Shown in pieces: positions 434 to 8,549 of a stretch of DNA of 8,761 nt. This DNA is from a virus (taxonomy: Duplodnaviria; Heunggongvirae; Uroviricota; Caudoviricetes): IMG/VR virus record IMGVR_UViG_2645727563_000007; one strand, given 5' to 3'. Below the pieces are notes generated by a model, which was not told the DNA's origin, made no database searches, and saw only the letters and a list, made by a program, of their open reading frames with translations. A program made the position numbers and the translations under genes. Each line of letters starts with the position of its first letter. The first letter of the stretch is position 1.

Positions 434-462
434 TTGACATTAGTCTTTGAAAATGCTAGTAT
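434..462 (+). promoter_or_regulatory. sigma70-type promoter: -35 TTGACA (434-439), 17-bp spacer, extended -10 TGcTAGTAT (454-462)
   Basis: Perfect -35 hexamer, optimal 17-bp spacer, TG-extended -10 with conserved A2 and T6, AT-rich upstream tract; about 50 bp upstream of the first ATG of the 512-1823 operon. Confidence 0.45.
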
Positions 463-1350: not shown

Positions 1351-1623
1351 ATGAAGCAATGGCGAGATGATATTAAACGGTTCTTTGCAACTTACTTCAT
1401 GATTAATTACGAAACAGGAATGCTTGAATGGATTGATGGCGGAGAGGTTAAGACAAGAGATGATGCTTACGGTAATCCAATGATTCGTTATGGCACTCGT
1501 GATTATTATGTGAAGTATGTCATCTGGTTTTTGCATCATGAAGTTCAGGCAACTAAAAAGATTATCTTCAGGGATGGTAATAAAAGAAATTGCCACCCAA
1601 ACAATTTACTACAGGAGATTTAA
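1351..1623 (+). CDS. HNH_3-like (homing-endonuclease-type) small protein, 90 aa; canonical catalytic His apparently substituted
   Basis: SD GGAGG (1339-1343); start 2 bp after the previous stop. C-terminal ...YVKYVIWFLHHEVQATKKIIFRDGNKRNCHPNNL resembles the HNH_3 pattern (hR.vW ... vDHiDGN..NN...NL), but the DH preceding DGN reads FR. Confidence 0.4.
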   Translation: MKQWRDDIKRFFATYFMINYETGMLEWIDGGEVKTRDDAYGNPMIRYGTRDYYVKYVIWFLHHEVQATKKIIFRDGNKRNCHPNNLLQEI

Positions 1624-2326: not shown

Positions 2327-2403
2327 TGGGTTTAATAATTGCTTGGACGCTGTTAGGGTTATTTGTTGGTTGCTGGATGGGTAACACAGTAAATAGAAAT
2401 TGA
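2326..2403 (+). CDS. small hydrophobic peptide, 25 aa (MGLIIAWTLLGLFVGCWMGNTVNRN), candidate
   Basis: ATG overlaps the stop of the 107-aa gene (TAATG at 2324-2328), suggesting translational coupling. One predicted transmembrane helix. Below the ORF-track length cutoff, so supported only by coupling and hydrophobicity. Confidence 0.3.
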   Translation: MGLIIAWTLLGLFVGCWMGNTVNRN

Positions 2404-2427
2404 TGTTACCAATCTGTTAAAAAGCTG

Positions 2428-2456
2428 TTGACAAATAACCTTGAGCATGACATAAT
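2428..2456 (+). promoter_or_regulatory. sigma70-type promoter: -35 TTGACA (2428-2433), 17-bp spacer, -10 CATAAT (2451-2456)
   Basis: Perfect -35, 17-bp spacer, 5/6 -10, preceded by an A-rich UP-like tract (TTAAAAAG). No long ORF follows for about 430 bp. Confidence 0.5.
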
Positions 2457-2658
2457 TGTATATATGAGGATAGTCTTCTATCCGAAGTCTATAGGGAGAG
2501 CAATTCTCCTTGAATTAAAATATTAATCGTCTCTACATCGATGATAACTATATTCTGAGTTGGAAAGGTGCAATGCTTTTCGTCATGGCCTTTCAGTTTA
2601 GTCTGAGAGGCTATCTCAAAAAGTGCTTAATCATTCATTATTGAACCCTTACAGCTTT

Positions 2659-2688
2659 GCCCTAACTCATGATTAGGGCGTTTTCTTT
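2659..2688 (+). terminator. intrinsic terminator: stem GCCCTAA / TTAGGGC, 7-nt loop, then GTTTTCTTT
   Basis: Perfect 7-bp stem (2659-2665 / 2673-2679) followed by a U-rich tract (2681-2688). Confidence 0.5.
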
Positions 2689-2757
2689 AAGAGTTTTTAA
2701 ACAGAGCTTTTAAAGAAAGTTTTTCCTGAAACTTCGTTAACGTTAAAGCAAACCTTC

Positions 2758-2794
2758 AAAGCCCTTTACAGATTCAATGTTTAGGGCTTTTCTT
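2758..2794 (+). terminator. second terminator-like hairpin: AAAGCCCT / AGGGCTTT, 17-nt loop, then TTTCTT
   Basis: 8-bp stem (2758-2765 / 2783-2790) with U-rich 3' side. The long loop lowers confidence. The 3' half (TTAGGGCTTTTCTTAATAGAG) is a diverged copy of the 2673-2697 terminator region. Confidence 0.3.
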
Positions 2795-2890
2795 AATAGA
2801 GCATCTTTAATAAATCGTTAAGTCATCTTCTAAGTGTATTGGCGTTGAAGGTGCTCTATTAAGAAATAACCACACTTAGAGGAAATTATA

Positions 2891-3601
2891 ATGGCCAACG
2901 ATATTTACATTAACGGTAAAAAGATTGATAGCTTCGGTGACTGGTCACCAACGACTGAACATCCAGCTATCACTATTCAGCGTCAAGAGCATGACAAGCG
3001 TATTAAGCTTGAGCAAGAAATCCGAATGTCACCAAAGGTAATTTCCTTTGTGACTCCTGAACCTCAAGAGATGCCCGATATCTGCAAGGGTGAATCACTA
3101 CTTGAGCTTGAAAAGAAATATTACCCACTGCTGAAAGCACAGCGTATTAAACTTGATGACGCTTACAGCAAAGTTACCTTGATGCAATCAGCTATTGAGC
3201 CGTCAGAATTTGAGATTCAGGATGAATTGTCACAGAAACCATTTGTCTATTACCAATACGAAGACAATGATGGTTTTGGTATTTATCCAGAAAGCATCCC
3301 AGCCGTGATTAGTAGTCTTCCTGATGGATATCGAATTGTGAAGATGGTTAAAGCTTCAAGGGGTGCTGGTCAGTTTGTTTACATGACCGATAAAAGCGAT
3401 GAAGAAGTCTGTGAAATTGCCAGACAGAACATCTTGGCATCACGTAACAAGCAGCTTGATAGTGCTAAGTTGTGTCTTTCAAGAGAGCTTCAGGCTATGA
3501 AAGAGCTTGTGAAAGAATATGAAGATGCTAAGAAGGTTGCTATGCAGGCTGATATTGAGCAGCTTACGAAGATTTCTCAGAAGTATAGCAAGGTACTTTA
3601 A
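2891..3601 (+). CDS. hypothetical protein, 236 aa, predicted coiled-coil C-terminal region
   Basis: ORF with SD AGAGGA (2878-2883) 7 nt upstream of ATG 2891. No family recognised. Confidence 0.6.
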   Translation: MANDIYINGKKIDSFGDWSPTTEHPAITIQRQEHDKRIKLEQEIRMSPKVISFVTPEPQEMPDICKGESLLELEKKYYPLLKAQRIKLDDAYSKVTLMQSAIEPSEFEIQDELSQKPFVYYQYEDNDGFGIYPESIPAVISSLPDGYRIVKMVKASRGAGQFVYMTDKSDEEVCEIARQNILASRNKQLDSAKLCLSRELQAMKELVKEYEDAKKVAMQADIEQLTKISQKYSKVL

Positions 3602-3625
3602 CTAATAATTAAAAGGAGGTGATGA

Positions 3626-3829
3626 ATGATTGATTTAACAGAACGCTATGAACTTATTAAAGCAATTAGCGAGAGATTGAAAGAACAACCCAACAAACCA
3701 AAACGAATCAAATCATCCACCTCTAGGCAAAATAGCAGAATCAGAAGAATCGCTAAATGGTGTCTTGATAAATTACCAAGTGATTGTCAGATTGTCGGTG
3801 AAGATGGTAATTATTATCTGGTTAGGTAA
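3626..3829 (+). CDS. hypothetical small basic protein, 67 aa
   Basis: Strong SD AAGGAGG (3613-3619) 6 nt upstream of ATG 3626. Lys/Arg-rich centre (KPKRIKSSTSRQNSRIRRIAKW) suggests nucleic-acid binding. No family recognised. Confidence 0.5.
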   Translation: MIDLTERYELIKAISERLKEQPNKPKRIKSSTSRQNSRIRRIAKWCLDKLPSDCQIVGEDGNYYLVR

Positions 3830-3855
3830 CAAGAATTGGTTGGGTAAAAATCAAC

Positions 3856-3896
3856 GGGAGAGATTATCGAGTGACATCGGTAGCTCTCCCTTTTTT
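3856..3896 (+). terminator. intrinsic terminator: GGGAGAG...CTCTCCC stem with inner TATCGA/TCGGTA pairing, then TTTTTTGT
   Basis: 7-bp GC-rich outer stem (3856-3862 / 3884-3890), an inner 6-bp helix (3865-3870 / 3877-3882, one G.U), and a T6 tract (3891-3896) directly after the 67-aa gene. Confidence 0.55.
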
Positions 3897-3926
3897 GTAT
3901 ATGAACACTTAAGAGGTGAAACATGA

Positions 3927-6059
3927 ATGAGCAAATTCACAGTTGATAGTTTTATCGTTGAGCTAGGCTTCAGCGAGAACGTTATTAAGGGCTTGCAAAG
4001 AGTTGAAAAGGCAGCTTTGCAGTCAGCACAAAGAATTGAAAAGAACCTAAATAAAGGTTTCAGGATTAATACAAAGCAGCTTGATAGTAATTTAACGGCT
4101 TCTTTAAAGTCAATGGAAGGGAAGATTAATAAGACCTTTGACCGTCTGGAAGCTAGAGCACGAAGCACAAAAGTTTTCCAGTTTACCACCAGATTTAATG
4201 ACACTGTTAATCCTCCAAAACAACCGAGACAGCCACGAATTAGCGGCAACAGAGCAATCACAGCAGCTTATTCAGCTAATATGACCAAGCTGAAAGGTCT
4301 TAACCCAATTGTCGAGAAATACATCAAATCTCAGTTTTACGGGCTATCTGCTAAAGCTGGGTCAATGGATAATTCAAAATTCAATGAGAAGTTGGCTCAA
4401 TTAAATGCTTCGGTCAGAGAAGCAATTGCTAAAGCCAGAGGCCATACATCCACCAGCATTAACGGTGACAGAGCAGCTAGCAGTCTTGATAATCTGTCTT
4501 TAGCGGCGGTTAAAACAGCAGGTGCATTTATCAGCTTTCAGGCTGTACTATCCGCTTATCAGCGAGTAATGGAAGTTGGCCTTCAACGTGCATCATCGGA
4601 AAGAAGTATTGATTTCGTATTCGGTGACCAAAGTACACAGGTCAAAAAGTTCATTCAAGATTTAACTCAGATTACTGGGATGGACACAACCGAAACACAA
4701 GCACAGTTTGCTTCATTTGGTGCATCTGCAAAGAACACGATGGGTCTTGAAGGGTCAGAAGAGTTATTTAAAAACCTTACAGGTTATGCTCGTTTAATGG
4801 GTCGTTCAGATGAGCAGATTCAAAGAGCATTAACCGCAGTGTCGCAGATGGCTTCTAAGGGTCAGGTGATGTCTGAGGAGCTGAAGGGGCAACTATCTGA
4901 AGCTTTACCGGGTGCTACTCAGGCATTTGCAAAGGCTTTAGGTCTGACTGAAAAACAGCTTTTCGATAAGATGAAAAATGGTGATGTTAAAGCCTCTGAT
5001 GCACTCCCTAAATTTGCTAAAGAACTTGGTTCACAGATTAATTCAAGAGGTGGCTGGAAAGCTATTCAGGACTCTACGCAGACAATGCTAGGGAACTTGA
5101 AGAATACTTGGAACAACTCACTAACGGATATTTTCAAAGGTTCTGAAGATGGTTTGCAGGACTTCACAAGAAGCTTGACCAATCTTTTAAACGCTCTTGG
5201 TGGAACTGGTAAAACATTAGGTGAAAGTTTTGGTAGCTTGATGACTGATATGTCACATGGTGTCGATTCATTGACTGATATTTCTTACAAGGTGAGAGCT
5301 TTCTTTGATGAGGTGACATTAGCTTACCGTTCACTAAATGACACTCAGAAAAAAATTGTTGACGGTTTATCTGATGGGTTAATTGATGGTTTGAAGATGC
5401 TTGCTGTAGCTGTTACTGCTCAAAAGGCTGCAAATGTAGCTGGAGGCTTGTTAAACCTTGCAAATGCTGTTACTTCATTCGGTGATGCTGTTAATAAAGC
5501 TAAAGCTGGCAAGGCTGGTTCTTCAGGTGGTGCGCTAAGTAAAGTCGGTAGAGTTGTCCTTTATGCTGAGTTGGTGAACTTTGCTCTTGATAATTTAAAC
5601 CCTGAAGCTGCTAAGAATCCGAACTTACATCAATCAGGTATTGGCACAGAAACAAACTTCAACCCTGAATACAAAGGCGATTCATCTAAACCAAACCAAA
5701 TTAATGAGGGATGGGCTAAGATTGGTAGTTCTATCGCTGACTGGTTTAATGGTGCAGCTAATAAAATTGCTAACTTCCAAGAGCCAATGAGTAACCTTGT
5801 TAATAACACACAATCAACTCCACCAGCTATCACAGGTGACATGGTTAATAGCAATGCTCAACTTGCAATGACTATTAGTGAACTATCACGCAAGGTAGAC
5901 GCTTTAACAGTAGAAGCTAAGAAGCCCTTGTCAGTTAATATCACTGGTGAAGCAACTGTTAGACCGGATGAACCAGCTTTCTTTAATTTCAGTCAATCGG
6001 CTAATGACCAGTTCACGCAGGATATGCTCTTAAGTTCAAGCTATCCAGAGGAAGAATGA
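3927..6059 (+). CDS. phage tail tape-measure-domain protein, 710 aa
   Basis: SD AAGAGGTG (3911-3918). Central segment ...QMASKGQVMSEELKGQLSEALPGATQAFAKALGLTEKQLFDKMKNGDVKASDALPKFAKELG... matches the conserved tape-measure motif. Predicted helical N-terminal part and Gly/Ala/Ser/Asn-rich C-terminal part are typical of these proteins. Confidence 0.8.
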   Translation: MSKFTVDSFIVELGFSENVIKGLQRVEKAALQSAQRIEKNLNKGFRINTKQLDSNLTASLKSMEGKINKTFDRLEARARSTKVFQFTTRFNDTVNPPKQPRQPRISGNRAITAAYSANMTKLKGLNPIVEKYIKSQFYGLSAKAGSMDNSKFNEKLAQLNASVREAIAKARGHTSTSINGDRAASSLDNLSLAAVKTAGAFISFQAVLSAYQRVMEVGLQRASSERSIDFVFGDQSTQVKKFIQDLTQITGMDTTETQAQFASFGASAKNTMGLEGSEELFKNLTGYARLMGRSDEQIQRALTAVSQMASKGQVMSEELKGQLSEALPGATQAFAKALGLTEKQLFDKMKNGDVKASDALPKFAKELGSQINSRGGWKAIQDSTQTMLGNLKNTWNNSLTDIFKGSEDGLQDFTRSLTNLLNALGGTGKTLGESFGSLMTDMSHGVDSLTDISYKVRAFFDEVTLAYRSLNDTQKKIVDGLSDGLIDGLKMLAVAVTAQKAANVAGGLLNLANAVTSFGDAVNKAKAGKAGSSGGALSKVGRVVLYAELVNFALDNLNPEAAKNPNLHQSGIGTETNFNPEYKGDSSKPNQINEGWAKIGSSIADWFNGAANKIANFQEPMSNLVNNTQSTPPAITGDMVNSNAQLAMTISELSRKVDALTVEAKKPLSVNITGEATVRPDEPAFFNFSQSANDQFTQDMLLSSSYPEEE

Positions 6060-6072
6060 TTTCTTATATATC

Positions 6073-6137
6073 CGTGTGCTACGTGAAATCTTCTGAACAG
6101 ATATACCCACCAAAAATTATTTTTTACGTAGCTCACG
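6073..6137. repeat. imperfect inverted repeat: 16-nt arms (6073-6088 / 6122-6137) around a 33-nt spacer
   Basis: CGTGTGCTACGTGAAA and TTTTACGTAGCTCACG pair at 15 of 16 positions (one U.U mismatch, one G.U); located just downstream of the tape-measure stop codon. Confidence 0.5.
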
Positions 6138-6158
6138 CTTAACAGAGAAAATACATAT

Positions 6159-6208
6159 ATTTCAAAGGCTTGGTTAAAAATGATTAAAATACACTAAGCC
6201 TTTGAAAT
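6159..6208. repeat. perfect 13-bp inverted repeat ATTTCAAAGGCTT / AAGCCTTTGAAAT (extendable to 16 bp), ending 2 nt before the next gene's SD
   Basis: Arms at 6159-6171 and 6196-6208 are exact reverse complements; three further pairs (one G.U) extend the helix; SD AAGGAG at 6211-6216. Confidence 0.55.
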
Positions 6209-6222
6209 CAAAGGAGAATTTA

Positions 6223-6996
6223 ATGATTTACTCTAATCAGATTCGTTACAGTGGCAAAGATGGCATCTATTTCCACTTAAGAGATAATGTAGATGCCTTC
6301 TTAACCTTATCAGCAACTGAAAATATGGAATTTGACAGCCCTATGCAGGTAACTACACAGAACATGCAATCAGGGCAAACCGTTACAGATAATGTGCAAA
6401 GAGCACCCAGAACAATCACTATTAGTGGTGTCGTTGTAGTTGGCTATGAAGGAAGCTTATTATTAACTCGTCAGGGTCAATTAGTAGAAAACTTCATTGA
6501 CACTCTCGAAAGCTGGCGTGACCAGAAGCAAATTATTTCGGTTATCTGTAAGGACGGAATTAAAATTGATGATTCCATTATTACGAGTTTTAAAGCCTCT
6601 AAAGATGTTGGAATTTCAAATGGTCTAAGAATCCAGCTAACTTTTCAGGAAATTAACTTCAAAGCCATTGTAGGGCAAACTGATGTTTCAGCAGCTACTG
6701 GCAAAACTGCTACCACGAATGACGGTGGTGCTACCAGTAAGAAGAATGCGGGTAACGTGACTACTGAACGCAATAACGCACCTATGCTGATGTGTCAGGA
6801 ACTGTACAGTTACTCAGCATCTGAGCTATCTGATGAAGCGCTAAGGGTCCGTAGCAATTGCTCTAAAAATGTCACGGTGAAAGATGGTGTAAGCACCTTC
6901 ACAGCCTCAGCTAATGAGCAGGCTTCAAAAGTGCTTAAGTCGGGTAATGCTTTACGGAAGTTTTCTGTGAATCCGAATAAGAAGGGCACTTATTGA
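6223..6996 (+). CDS. hypothetical protein, 257 aa; by position possibly a distal tail (Dit-like) protein
   Basis: Start set at ATG 6223 with SD AAGGAG (6211-6216) rather than the track's TTG 6202. Immediately follows the tape-measure gene, the usual position of Dit in siphovirus tail modules; sequence looks beta-rich. Function is inferred from position only. Confidence 0.55.
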
Positions 6997-7028: not shown

Positions 7029-8549
7029 TTACAGTTGATAAGCGTCAATATCCAGTAGCTCTTTATCAGCAATTTCAAAGATTGGTGACCCATCATTTAG
7101 CGGTAACGGGTTTGTAGGTATGGTGATTTCAGTGTCGTTCTGTAGCGTTACAGTTACCGAATCCTTACCCAATGTAAGCCCTTTTAGATGCTTGGACAAA
7201 ATCAACTGACACTCGACACGACCCACTTTAGTTGTCAGGTCAATATCTTTAAGCTGGGGTAGTTCCTTATCAGTGAGTGAAGCCTTACGCCTCATGTTAT
7301 CAATCGTGGTCTGTAGCTCTGTGCGCTTCTGGTTCAGTTCCTTAAGCTGAATTTTTAGTTCATCAATATCATCCATCTCAAGAAGTAGGGCGGTAGCTTT
7401 CTTGATTCTGGTTGTGACAATTTCAACCTCATGCTGTAGAGATGCAATCTCCCCCTCTGCTTCTCCATCATTCCCCACGTCAATCATTCCTAGAAAATTT
7501 TCAAGCATCCACTTATCAAACGGTTTACGCTTCAACGGAGGAACATCACAGCGACCATCAAGATGGTTATTGCACCGATAAACGCCCTGATACTTATTCT
7601 TAGTCCCTGTAGGGTGAACACTAGCCCCGCACTGACACCTAAACAGACCTTTGAAGATGTTAATCGTTAATGGATTATCACTTGCAGGTGTACGGCCTAT
7701 ACGGTTCTTACCAAGAATCTCTTGAGCTTTATTGAACGTTGAAGCATCTATAGCGGCTTCGTAGTAGTTCGGTATAGCGGGGCGGTCATTACGTTGTGAT
7801 GCTGGTAACGTGCCTATCGTTGTCTCTGACCTTAAGATGGTGCGTACAGAGTGAACACTAAACCCGTTAGCATCTTTACGGCGACTAAACGACTTTATAC
7901 CGTTGCTTTGAAGGTGACGGGCGATGTTATGCAGACTTTCACCACTTAGCAGCAGCTTGAAAATCAGTCTTACAGTCTCAGCGTGTTCATTGCACTTGAA
8001 AGTATCGGGGTCAATCCATCCGGGAACATTTCTTGTAAGACGCTGTTCACCAGCAAGGGCAAGCTTTGCACGTTGTTCCCATTTCTGACTAACACGGAAA
8101 GACTTCTGTTTACTCTCCTGATGCGCTATGTAGCTTTTAACCCGCTGAATGATTGAGATTCCTAAATCATCGGATAGAGCATCCCTTGTGTAGATTAGCC
8201 CATCCTGTAGAGTGTGAATCTCGATACCATGAGCAATAATGCGATTCATCAAGGCTTCTGTTTCAAGATGTTCAAGGCGGCCTATGCGGTCGATAGCTTC
8301 GACTAACAGAACTGTACCTTCTGAAAACTCCCCACTTTCAATACGGGAAAGCATATCCCCAAATTGCCCTGACAAGTGCTTACCTTTGTAACCGGATAGA
8401 CCCTCATCATTGAAAGATGCTACTACTTGAGCATCGCTATTCTTCTTCAACCATTGTTTGAACAGGTCGTTTTGTCGTCTGGTTGAATCTGCACCTTCAG
8501 CGCCTTGTATGGCTGAACTGTACCGAAGGTATGTAATTACGTGTCTCAT
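7029..8549 (-). CDS. large serine recombinase (serine integrase), 506 aa
   Basis: N-terminal resolvase-type catalytic domain (YLRYSSAIQ with the catalytic Ser; DEGLSGYKG; LLVEAIDRIGR), followed by a recombinase domain, a Cys-rich zinc-ribbon (FRCQCGASVHPTG...YRCNNHLDGRCD) and a C-terminal coiled-coil. SD GGGAG (revcomp of 8559-8563) 9 nt upstream of ATG. Confidence 0.9.
   Translation of the reverse strand: MRHVITYLRYSSAIQGAEGADSTRRQNDLFKQWLKKNSDAQVVASFNDEGLSGYKGKHLSGQFGDMLSRIESGEFSEGTVLLVEAIDRIGRLEHLETEALMNRIIAHGIEIHTLQDGLIYTRDALSDDLGISIIQRVKSYIAHQESKQKSFRVSQKWEQRAKLALAGEQRLTRNVPGWIDPDTFKCNEHAETVRLIFKLLLSGESLHNIARHLQSNGIKSFSRRKDANGFSVHSVRTILRSETTIGTLPASQRNDRPAIPNYYEAAIDASTFNKAQEILGKNRIGRTPASDNPLTINIFKGLFRCQCGASVHPTGTKNKYQGVYRCNNHLDGRCDVPPLKRKPFDKWMLENFLGMIDVGNDGEAEGEIASLQHEVEIVTTRIKKATALLLEMDDIDELKIQLKELNQKRTELQTTIDNMRRKASLTDKELPQLKDIDLTTKVGRVECQLILSKHLKGLTLGKDSVTVTLQNDTEITIPTNPLPLNDGSPIFEIADKELLDIDAYQL

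Follow-up and report, generated by a model that had tools for sequence, protein, structure and literature searches.

A conserved promoter, structured RNA and tandem terminators precede the phage-derived tail genes of an uncharacterised Escherichia coli island

In the 8761-bp stretch of DNA analysed here (IMG/VR record IMGVR_UViG_2645727563_000007, called the window throughout), the segment at 2428-2688 lies ahead of tail genes shared with Felix-O1-like phages, the presumed helpers of the island that carries it. A preliminary description made from the sequence alone had presented this cassette as a promoter, a hairpin, a small open reading frame (ORF) and a terminator, and had proposed that it encodes either a small regulatory RNA (sRNA) or a small peptide resembling type I toxins. 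Every element it listed is present, at or near the position reported, but the hairpin and the ORF are not conserved. The promoter, the terminators, two other hairpins and a core of 20 nucleotides (nt) are conserved among homologous loci, and no other sigma-70-like promoter is found for the operon that follows. Judged by its pattern of substitutions the transcription unit is selected at the RNA level, and it very probably specifies a functional non-coding RNA of some kind. The interpretation preferred here, which is put forward tentatively, sees the cassette as a terminator-gated leader from which termination releases a stable small RNA; the 20-nt core (the 20-mer) and the adjoining hairpin H3 would be its regulatory element.

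Homologous loci

The cassette occupies an intergenic region between genes encoding proteins of 107 and 236 amino acids (aa); the coordinates of all features are collected in Table 1. Homologs of this region were found in 471-477 of 5426 complete E. coli genomes (about 9%) at 60-99% identity, all of them chromosomal and none annotated, while blastn of the region against phage records gave no match. For comparison, 24 E. coli loci were chosen across this identity range from a BLAST search with the whole region, and one Escherichia sp. locus was added, the sole extra from a scan of species-representative genomes with the 236-aa protein. A further 107 metagenome and 14 viral-contig stretches were retrieved with the 20-mer core motif as the query. 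The pooled set contains 110-119 unique sequences, the larger number being the extended sequences used for the terminator count. The order of 107-aa gene, cassette and 236-aa gene is constant in the homologs.

Counts in the single sequence are uninformative, with 18 promoter-like sites against 20.9 in shuffled sequences and 5 terminator-like sites against 6.6. Because such hits are no commoner than in shuffles, support for the unit being more than chance has to come from comparison. The predicted transcript is much more stably folded than shuffled versions of it (z = -4.3 for 2462-2690 and z = -8.7 for 2462-2900). The predicted RNA is about 225 nt long in the window and 184-292 nt (median 210) in the homologs. 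Rfam 15 returned no match at the gathering threshold and nothing convincing at E <= 10, the best sub-threshold match scoring 23 bits where the cut-off is 59. The spacer and terminator region of the unit is mosaic across the homologs, which suggests frequent recombination.

The promoter and its paralog

The near-consensus promoter of the preliminary description, TTGACA-17-CATAAT, is where it was reported to be. This promoter, P2, is the top promoter match of the window (11/12) and is nearly invariant in the 110 unique homologs, along with the roughly 25 nt on its 5' side; transcription would start at about 2462-2464. The element at 2403-2424 is nearly invariant in 26 loci and has the same layout 5' of a second promoter, P1, so that it is likely to be a regulator-binding or UP-like site. 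P1 and P2 are paralogous from about -60 to +10 (403-475 and 2403-2466 of the window). They have in common the pattern ATGTTA-N6-TGTTAAAAA-N2/3-TTGACA-17-(-10)-TGTNTATATG, in which the initial transcribed sequence TGTNTATATG is identical for the two. As a paralog of P1, P2 belongs to the island's own regulatory circuit, and the resemblance suggests that one regulator controls both. From 2475 to 3433 the + strand has no further predicted promoter of the sigma-70-like kind, which leaves P2 as the sole recognisable promoter for the tail operon. The - strand has no promoter-like site across 2428-2890.

The conserved RNA body

The conserved hairpin nearest the start of the transcript is H1 (-8.5 kcal/mol), which folds in 41 of 41 sequence variants. 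RNAalifold finds GC, AU and GU exchanges in its stem, two pairs being changed on both sides in 22 and 24 sequences. H1 is followed by a variable spacer in which a (GATG)n tract, aligned at about 2535-2545, grows from 2 to 5 copies in some homologs; this tract and the TCATTC repeats of the later linker are slippage-prone sequences inside the transcript. A boxA/boxB-like reading of the spacer, together with the GCAAU loop described below, was considered as a lead and is not conserved across the spacer alleles, so that no claim is made for it.

The 20-mer follows the spacer. Of the 24 E. coli loci found independently by BLAST, 22 have it in identical form, and the other two have one G-to-A substitution and one 1-nt deletion, respectively. 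Across the same 24 loci the 107-aa protein falls to 29% identity and the 236-aa protein to 26%, so the core outlasts the proteins encoded on either side. Part of the 20-mer, GCUUUUCG (2575-2582), can pair in two directions. Upstream pairing with GAAAGGU gives a 7-base-pair (bp) hairpin with a GCAAU loop, which buries the Shine-Dalgarno (SD)-like GAAAGG and the ATG; downstream pairing with CAAAAAGU (2617-2624) gives an outer stem extending H3. These alternatives are nearly equal in energy, and which of them is favoured shifts with an A/G polymorphism at 2618.

The inner hairpin of H3 folds in 38 of 38 variants. In the comparison of its arms 94.2% of cells are paired, as against 85% in shuffles, and none of 500 shuffles reaches the observed value; arms slid from their true position gave 32-51%. 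Six of the 12 pairs are changed on both sides. The arms were set by their distance from the conserved flanks and not by structure. RNAalifold on a plain MAFFT alignment of the 110 sequences had missed H3, since indels misaligned the arms, and the flank-anchored arms were used in its place. H1 and H3 contain many G-U pairs. On the opposite strand each of these would become an A-C mismatch, so it is the + strand RNA that is structured. Covariation among homologous loci, which the preliminary description had proposed as a check, is present in both hairpins in the form of compensatory changes.

Terminators and the leader of the 236-aa gene

The intrinsic terminator reported at the end of the unit (T1, 2658-2688) is likewise present in the sequence and is predicted to form the 3' end of the RNA of about 225 nt. 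All 119 unique sequences have one to four terminator-like hairpins 3' of the RNA and before the next gene, and 108 of them have at least two. The type is replaceable, being either GCCCTAA/TTAGGGC or a replacement, but a terminator is never absent from these sequences. The U-tracts of T1 (UUUUCUUU) and of the second terminator T2 (UUUUCUU) are interrupted, and leaky, regulatable termination therefore fits them. A pairing of 2619-2634 with 2669-2684, which would compete with T1 as an antiterminator, was rejected because it is not kept in other variants.

Beyond T2 two competing structures are available to the 5' untranslated region (UTR) of the 236-aa gene: a 22-bp hairpin (2789-2810 with 2845-2866), and a pairing of 2826-2837 with 2872-2883 in which the SD sequence AGAGGA of the gene (2878-2883) is covered. 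Two leader alleles that differ greatly preserve both structures, suggesting that translational control is added to the terminators. The preliminary description would have abandoned its proposal if transcription read through into the gene at 2891 and the unit were only a long leader. That scenario is now part of the preferred interpretation, and is retained because no other sigma-70-like promoter occurs between the terminator and 2891 and because a second terminator and a structured 5' UTR follow the first.

The start-site hairpin and the 23-codon ORF

The 6-bp hairpin that was assigned to the start site is present at 2468-2483 (about -7.6 kcal/mol), but it belongs to a 27-nt insertion that occupies this site in only 18 of the 110 unique homologs. 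The module is thus accessory and sporadic, and the role of conserved 5' hairpin falls to H1, at 2492-2512. A related mini-hairpin stands just 5' of the 20-mer in 28 of the 110 sequences, and further copies are found in the T2 loop, between the 67-aa and tape-measure genes, and farther upstream on both strands, the window itself having a degenerate composite copy on the - strand at about 303-360. The modules are 24-41 nt long and have the form GAGG-a-b-a'-CCGAA-b', with two interleaved inverted repeats that both covary between copies: the sequences differ and the complementarity stays. They sit at many intergenic positions on both strands, and their presence or absence differs between close relatives. 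Among viral contigs the version in the window is found only in these islands, and the same pattern was not found in the helper phage.

The 23-codon ORF with its SD-like motif (GAAAGG, 2563-2568, four nt 5' of the ATG at 2573) is likewise real in the window but is not a conserved coding sequence. Read from the first ATG, the ORF has 5, 8, 9, 11, 12, 22, 23, 34, 35, 42 or 58 codons among the 26 loci, and from the second ATG it has 6-54. A 2-nt indel (CGT--CATG versus CGCTACATG) shifts its frame in about a third of the sequences. What stays constant, the SD-like motif and the ATG with the Leu and Phe codons after it, lies entirely inside the 20-mer; frame, length and sequence are otherwise not conserved, and the peptide has no conserved hydrophobic helix. 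Because the indel and the stops break the ORF, there is no conserved peptide and therefore no type-I-toxin-like gene, and no antisense promoter is predicted either. The small-peptide half of the original proposal is thus largely refuted, whereas the regulatory-RNA half has gained support from the promoter, terminators, compensated hairpins and core. Met-Leu-Phe (2573-2581) is the only conserved part of the mini-ORF, and in some homologs the whole ORF reads MLFAT. The formylated tripeptide fMLF is the classical formyl-peptide chemoattractant; the match to it is almost certainly a coincidence.

The island

The window, a single complete contig, contains a small integrated island of about 8.5 kb to which the cassette belongs; in E. 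coli ES5 (NZ_CP133871) the island is located between ymdF and wrbA, at 1.971-1.983 Mb. The genes across 2891-6996 share one orientation and are separated by short gaps. Over stretches of the tape-measure and Dit-like genes, DNA identity to Felixounavirus phages of E. coli and Salmonella (more than 200 of them) is 93-98%. For most proteins of the island, searches of Pfam, NCBIfam, PADLOC and the PDB found nothing, and their PHROGs matches are to families of unknown function alone. The window contains no tRNAs. No description of the island, nor of a satellite for Felix-O1-like phages, was found in the literature. On the basis of its gene content the island is probably an undescribed satellite-like or defence island of Felix-O1-like phages.

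Table 1. Positions of the cassette, its parts and the surrounding features in the window
Feature	Position	Strand	Remarks
Divergent promoter	426-397	-	Abuts P1
P1 promoter	434-462	+	Heads genes of 185, 92, 90 (HNH motif), 77 and 107 aa
HNH-motif gene	1351-1623		Small, 90 aa; downstream of P1
Intergenic region with cassette			564 nt, between the 107-aa and 236-aa genes
Upstream element ATGTTACCAATCTGTTAAAAAG	2403-2424	+	Two TGTTA direct repeats 11 nt apart, then an A-tract
P2, -35 TTGACA	2428-2433	+	17-nt spacer to the -10
P2, extended -10 TG	2448-2449	+	
P2, -10 CATAAT	2451-2456	+	
27-nt insertion GAGGATAGTCTTCTATCCGAAGTCTAT	2466-2492	+	Contains the GGATAG-tctt-CTATCC hairpin, 2468-2483
H1 hairpin	2492-2512	+	Purine arm GGGAGAG, loop CAAUU, pyrimidine arm CUCUCC
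Spacer	2513-2562	+	Variable, G-poor, at least 4 unrelated alleles, optional second mini-hairpin
20-mer core GAAAGGTGCAATGCTTTTCG	2563-2582	+	Occurs once in the window
23-codon ORF	ATG 2573, stop 2642-2644	+	Product MLFVMAFQFSLRGYLKKCLIIHY
H3 inner hairpin	2585-2614	+	12 bp; arms 2585-2596 and 2603-2614, loop 2597-2602
Linker	2625-2657	+	A/U-rich, variable number of TCATTC repeats
T1 intrinsic terminator	Stem-loop 2658-2680, U-tract 2681-2688	+	U-tract UUUUCUUU; -10.7 kcal/mol
Read-through-only hairpin	2682-2693 with 2707-2718	+	Formed by the T1 U-tract; -14.4 kcal/mol
T2	2758-2797	+	AAAGCCC...GGGCUUU, UUUUCUU tail; partial duplicate of T1; -14.5 kcal/mol
5' UTR of the 236-aa gene	2789-2890	+	Structured; two competing pairings
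236-aa gene	2891-3601	+	First gene 3' of the cassette, followed by the 67-aa gene
Tape-measure gene	3927-6059		PF20155
Dit-like tail gene	6202-6996		PF21821
Large serine recombinase gene	7029-8549	-	

The 236-aa gene has at least three allele classes (about 85%, 60% and 26% identity), which are freely combined with the RNA and leader variants. Its product has 3114 close homologs, and among those listed none has a Pfam domain; a sequence search of the PDB was uninformative. The AlphaFold model is of low confidence (mean pLDDT, the predicted local distance difference test score, of 67.6), consists mostly of long helices and is too weak for a fold search. The RefSeq label 'transposase' for this gene was set aside, being without Pfam or NCBIfam support.

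An unannotated 25-codon ORF, MGLIIAWTLLGLFVGCWMGNTVNRN, lies on the + strand at 2326-2403, its ATG overlapping the stop of the 107-aa gene. Its length and hydrophobicity are kept in two allelic forms across the 26 loci, and it is probably a genuine gene for a small membrane protein, with a more toxin-like character than the 23-codon ORF flagged earlier. No complementarity to the cassette RNA was found for it.

Signals possibly shared with the presumed helper and search for targets

P2 resembles a promoter family of the phage garuso, AAAAAGNTGTTGACA-N5-CTTGACA, with members at 12114, 47906 and 57658. In the leader, the motif ACTTAGAAGATGACTTAA (2818-2835, - strand) matches at 17 of 18 positions a motif that stands 3' of two garuso promoters, at 57695-57712 and 12162-12179, where the promoters head rightward operons; it is possibly an operator or RNA signal common to helper and island. 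A/T-rich CTTTAAG/CTTAAAG palindromes 3' of T1 also recur in phage leaders. Each of these likenesses is weak alone (blastn-short E 0.017-0.88); together they suggest that the regulatory region of the island shares signals with its presumed helper.

The search for pairing partners gave values within the range of shuffled controls in three comparisons: ungapped complementarity of the whole RNA to the 86-kb helper genome and the island, complementarity of the variable region to 46 island loci, and RNAduplex scoring of translation-initiation regions, 177 from the helper and 18 from the island. A scan of viral contigs with 14-mers gave mostly chance matches. The best candidate is a 15-nt perfect or G-U complement of the 20-mer (2567-2582) in the mRNA of garuso gene 17 (8301-8315, - strand), in the coding region of a small early gene and 38 nt 5' of the start of the next gene. 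By a rough estimate the chance of such a 15-nt match is about 0.5%, counting the core alone. In 13 of 18 Felix-like phages this site shows synonymous variation, and it lies at neither a start codon nor a ribosome-binding site; the complement, which is unproven, may be due to chance.

Preferred interpretation and alternatives

If the cassette is a terminator-gated leader, transcription from P2 would normally stop at T1 or T2, which would keep the tail module (the 236-aa, 67-aa, tape-measure and Dit-like genes) silent or at a very low level. The terminated RNA would be released and would be stable, guarded by H1 at its 5' end and by the terminator at its 3' end. The 20-mer and H3 would form a switch or a binding site for a protein, an RNA-polymerase-modifying factor or a ribosome, and this site would set the level of read-through, for example after infection by a helper phage, and also the translation of the read-through mRNA. 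The released RNA may additionally act in trans. That the RNA is produced and its termination regulated, and what the core binds, are inferences.

Several points weigh against this interpretation. The start site and 3' end of the transcript, like the read-through, are predictions. Among the island proteins no antiterminator was recognised, none of them matching Q/N-type factors in Pfam, NCBIfam, PHROG functions, PADLOC or the PDB. A helper-specific promoter may lie between T2 and 2891, in which case the RNA would be an independent gene. T1 and T2 are reasonably stable at -10.7 and -14.5 kcal/mol, and could belong to a plain, well-terminated sRNA gene. Finally, the invariance of the 20-mer in the metagenome and viral-contig set is by construction, since the 20-mer was the search pattern.

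Such an independent gene is the strongest of the alternatives, though somewhat unlikely: the RNA of about 225 nt would be the sole product of P2 and would pair with host, helper or island mRNAs, possibly with the involvement of Hfq or ProQ, while the tail operon would have a helper-dependent promoter of its own. It would account for the set of features found in every homolog, from a strong dedicated promoter and the 5' hairpin to an A/U-rich linker and a Rho-independent terminator, and for a core far better conserved than the neighbouring genes; the gene 17 complement could be one of its targets, and SviR, discussed below, is a satellite sRNA acting on both helper and satellite. The complementarity scans of the helper genome, the 177 initiation regions and the island loci do not rise above shuffles, however, and the gene 17 site has the synonymous variation and the position already described. 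Moreover, two alternative helices can each sequester the candidate seed, and the U-tails are short and interrupted. It is improbable that the 20-mer is instead a ribosome-binding site and start (GAAAGG-UGCA-AUG CUU UUC) from which translation into H3, and not the peptide, controls folding, stability or termination. The SD-like motif, its spacing, the ATG and the two following codons are constant in every copy while the rest varies, and the 20-mer either hides the SD and ATG or frees both when GCUUUUCG pairs downstream, as such a leader would need. Yet the stop falls anywhere from the 5' arm of H3 to beyond T1 (5-58 codons), leaving no fixed geometry between ribosome and terminator, the frame is not conserved, and the G-to-A change carried by 3 sequences, which is the sole substitution in the SD, makes for a weaker SD but preserves the hairpin pair.

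The remaining two alternatives make the RNA incidental to DNA or part of a toxin-antitoxin system. Selection for a DNA-level element, either recombination linkers between exchangeable modules or a site for replication or packaging of the island, is quite improbable. The cassette is exactly between modules that have very different alleles in all combinations, no part of the window is richer in A+T (34.5% G+C), and the mosaic spacer and terminator region suggests frequent recombination; but the compensatory changes and G-U pairs of H1 and H3 point to selection on the + strand RNA, there are no iterons or tandem repeats in 2428-2688, and promoter and terminators are kept as a set. A toxin-antitoxin locus, with the 23-codon ORF as a type I toxin or the RNA as the type III antitoxin of the 236-aa protein, is highly improbable, even if the order of promoter, RNA, terminator and gene is like that of type III loci and the downstream gene is multiply repressed by two terminators and by pairing of its SD. 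The ORF is unconserved and lacks a hydrophobic helix, and no antisense promoter accompanies it. As for type III, the RNA has no tandem repeats, its variants do not co-vary with the alleles of the 236-aa gene, and the 236-aa protein, for which there is only the low-confidence model of mostly long helices, has no ToxN/AbiQ, Pfam or PADLOC match.

Relation to known systems

The arrangement most closely recalls the lambdoid pR'-tR' region, the source of 6S RNA and StxS, where a strong promoter directly 5' of late or structural genes gives a short RNA ending at an intrinsic terminator, the downstream genes are reached only by read-through, and the by-product RNA can be a regulatory sRNA. In that region a constitutive promoter yields the short RNA until antitermination gives access to the late operon; StxS, which arises as a by-product of this control, also functions as an sRNA (PMC7547250). 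In the island, too, promoter and terminator are directly 5' of a structural operon that has no other promoter of the sigma-70 type; however, no island protein matches the Antiterm or Phage_antitermQ families. The cassette further differs in having no sequence or Rfam similarity to the lambdoid region, in its two tandem terminators, in its host element, which is a small island with a serine recombinase and not a lambdoid prophage, and in an RNA body under structural selection (H1, H3 and the 20-mer), which is no known property of 6S or StxS.

Among satellites, the P4 CI RNA (C4 antisense RNA family) is derived from the untranslated leader of a constitutively active promoter and causes premature termination of the operon it precedes, for which it needs complementary seqA and seqC sequences in the same leader. 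The cassette RNA resembles it as a predicted leader-derived RNA of a satellite-like island ahead of an operon, but a P4-like immunity was rejected because no internal complementary boxes and no C4-family match at E <= 10 were found. SviR, an sRNA of the Vibrio cholerae satellite PLE, is strikingly conserved across divergent variants of its island and is a precedent for a satellite RNA that regulates both helper and satellite genes (bioRxiv 10.1101/2022.04.08.487710). The host, the island and the helper (ICP1 in one case, Felix-O1-like in the other) are unrelated, no targets were found for the cassette RNA, and an Rfam search, the one comparison made for homology between the two, was negative.

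Type I and type III toxin-antitoxin loci are likewise compact, with promoter, small RNA and terminator beside a small ORF or a gene under tight repression. For type I, no conserved toxin ORF and no complementary segment elsewhere in the island were found. For type III, Tandem Repeats Finder detected no repeats in 2462-2688, its only array being one of 13 nt x 2.7 at 2690-2724, 3' of T1; an antitoxin of this type was rejected for want of tandem RNA repeats and of any ToxN/AbiQ/CptN-type match for the 236-aa protein in Pfam, NCBIfam, PHROG or PADLOC. With a classical sRNA gene the cassette shares a short non-coding transcript bounded by its own promoter and a Rho-independent terminator, and the 20-mer is conserved as a seed might be, yet it can be paired in two helices and has no helper or island target above shuffles. 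The cassette RNA belongs to none of these families and is best classed as a regulatory RNA or leader of a mobile element for which no family has been described.

Significance

The interest of the cassette comes mainly from its setting in an apparently undescribed but common E. coli island with helper-derived tail genes, where a predicted RNA with a 20-nt invariant core is placed at the junction of the early genes of the island and the phage-derived tail genes. It is also an example of how short ORFs within structured RNAs can be mistaken for toxin genes. If the cassette is what it is taken to be here, it would be a new family of the Rfam type. To our knowledge few satellite-encoded regulatory RNAs have been described, the P4 CI RNA and SviR of PLE being the known cases.

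A more specific proposal, which is rather unlikely, is that the cassette is the control RNA of an undescribed class of E. coli satellite or defence islands, in which the 20-mer and H3 are read by a factor of Felix-O1-like infection that suppresses T1 and T2. Were such a helper-sensing switch to exist, it would turn on decoy or hijacking tail proteins through an RNA that has no Rfam relative, and the released RNA might regulate in trans. Felix-O1-like phages serve in phage typing and therapy. The cassette, if the preferred interpretation of it is correct, would provide a concrete regulatory handle on an uncharacterised island family that is carried by about one in eleven sequenced E. coli genomes.

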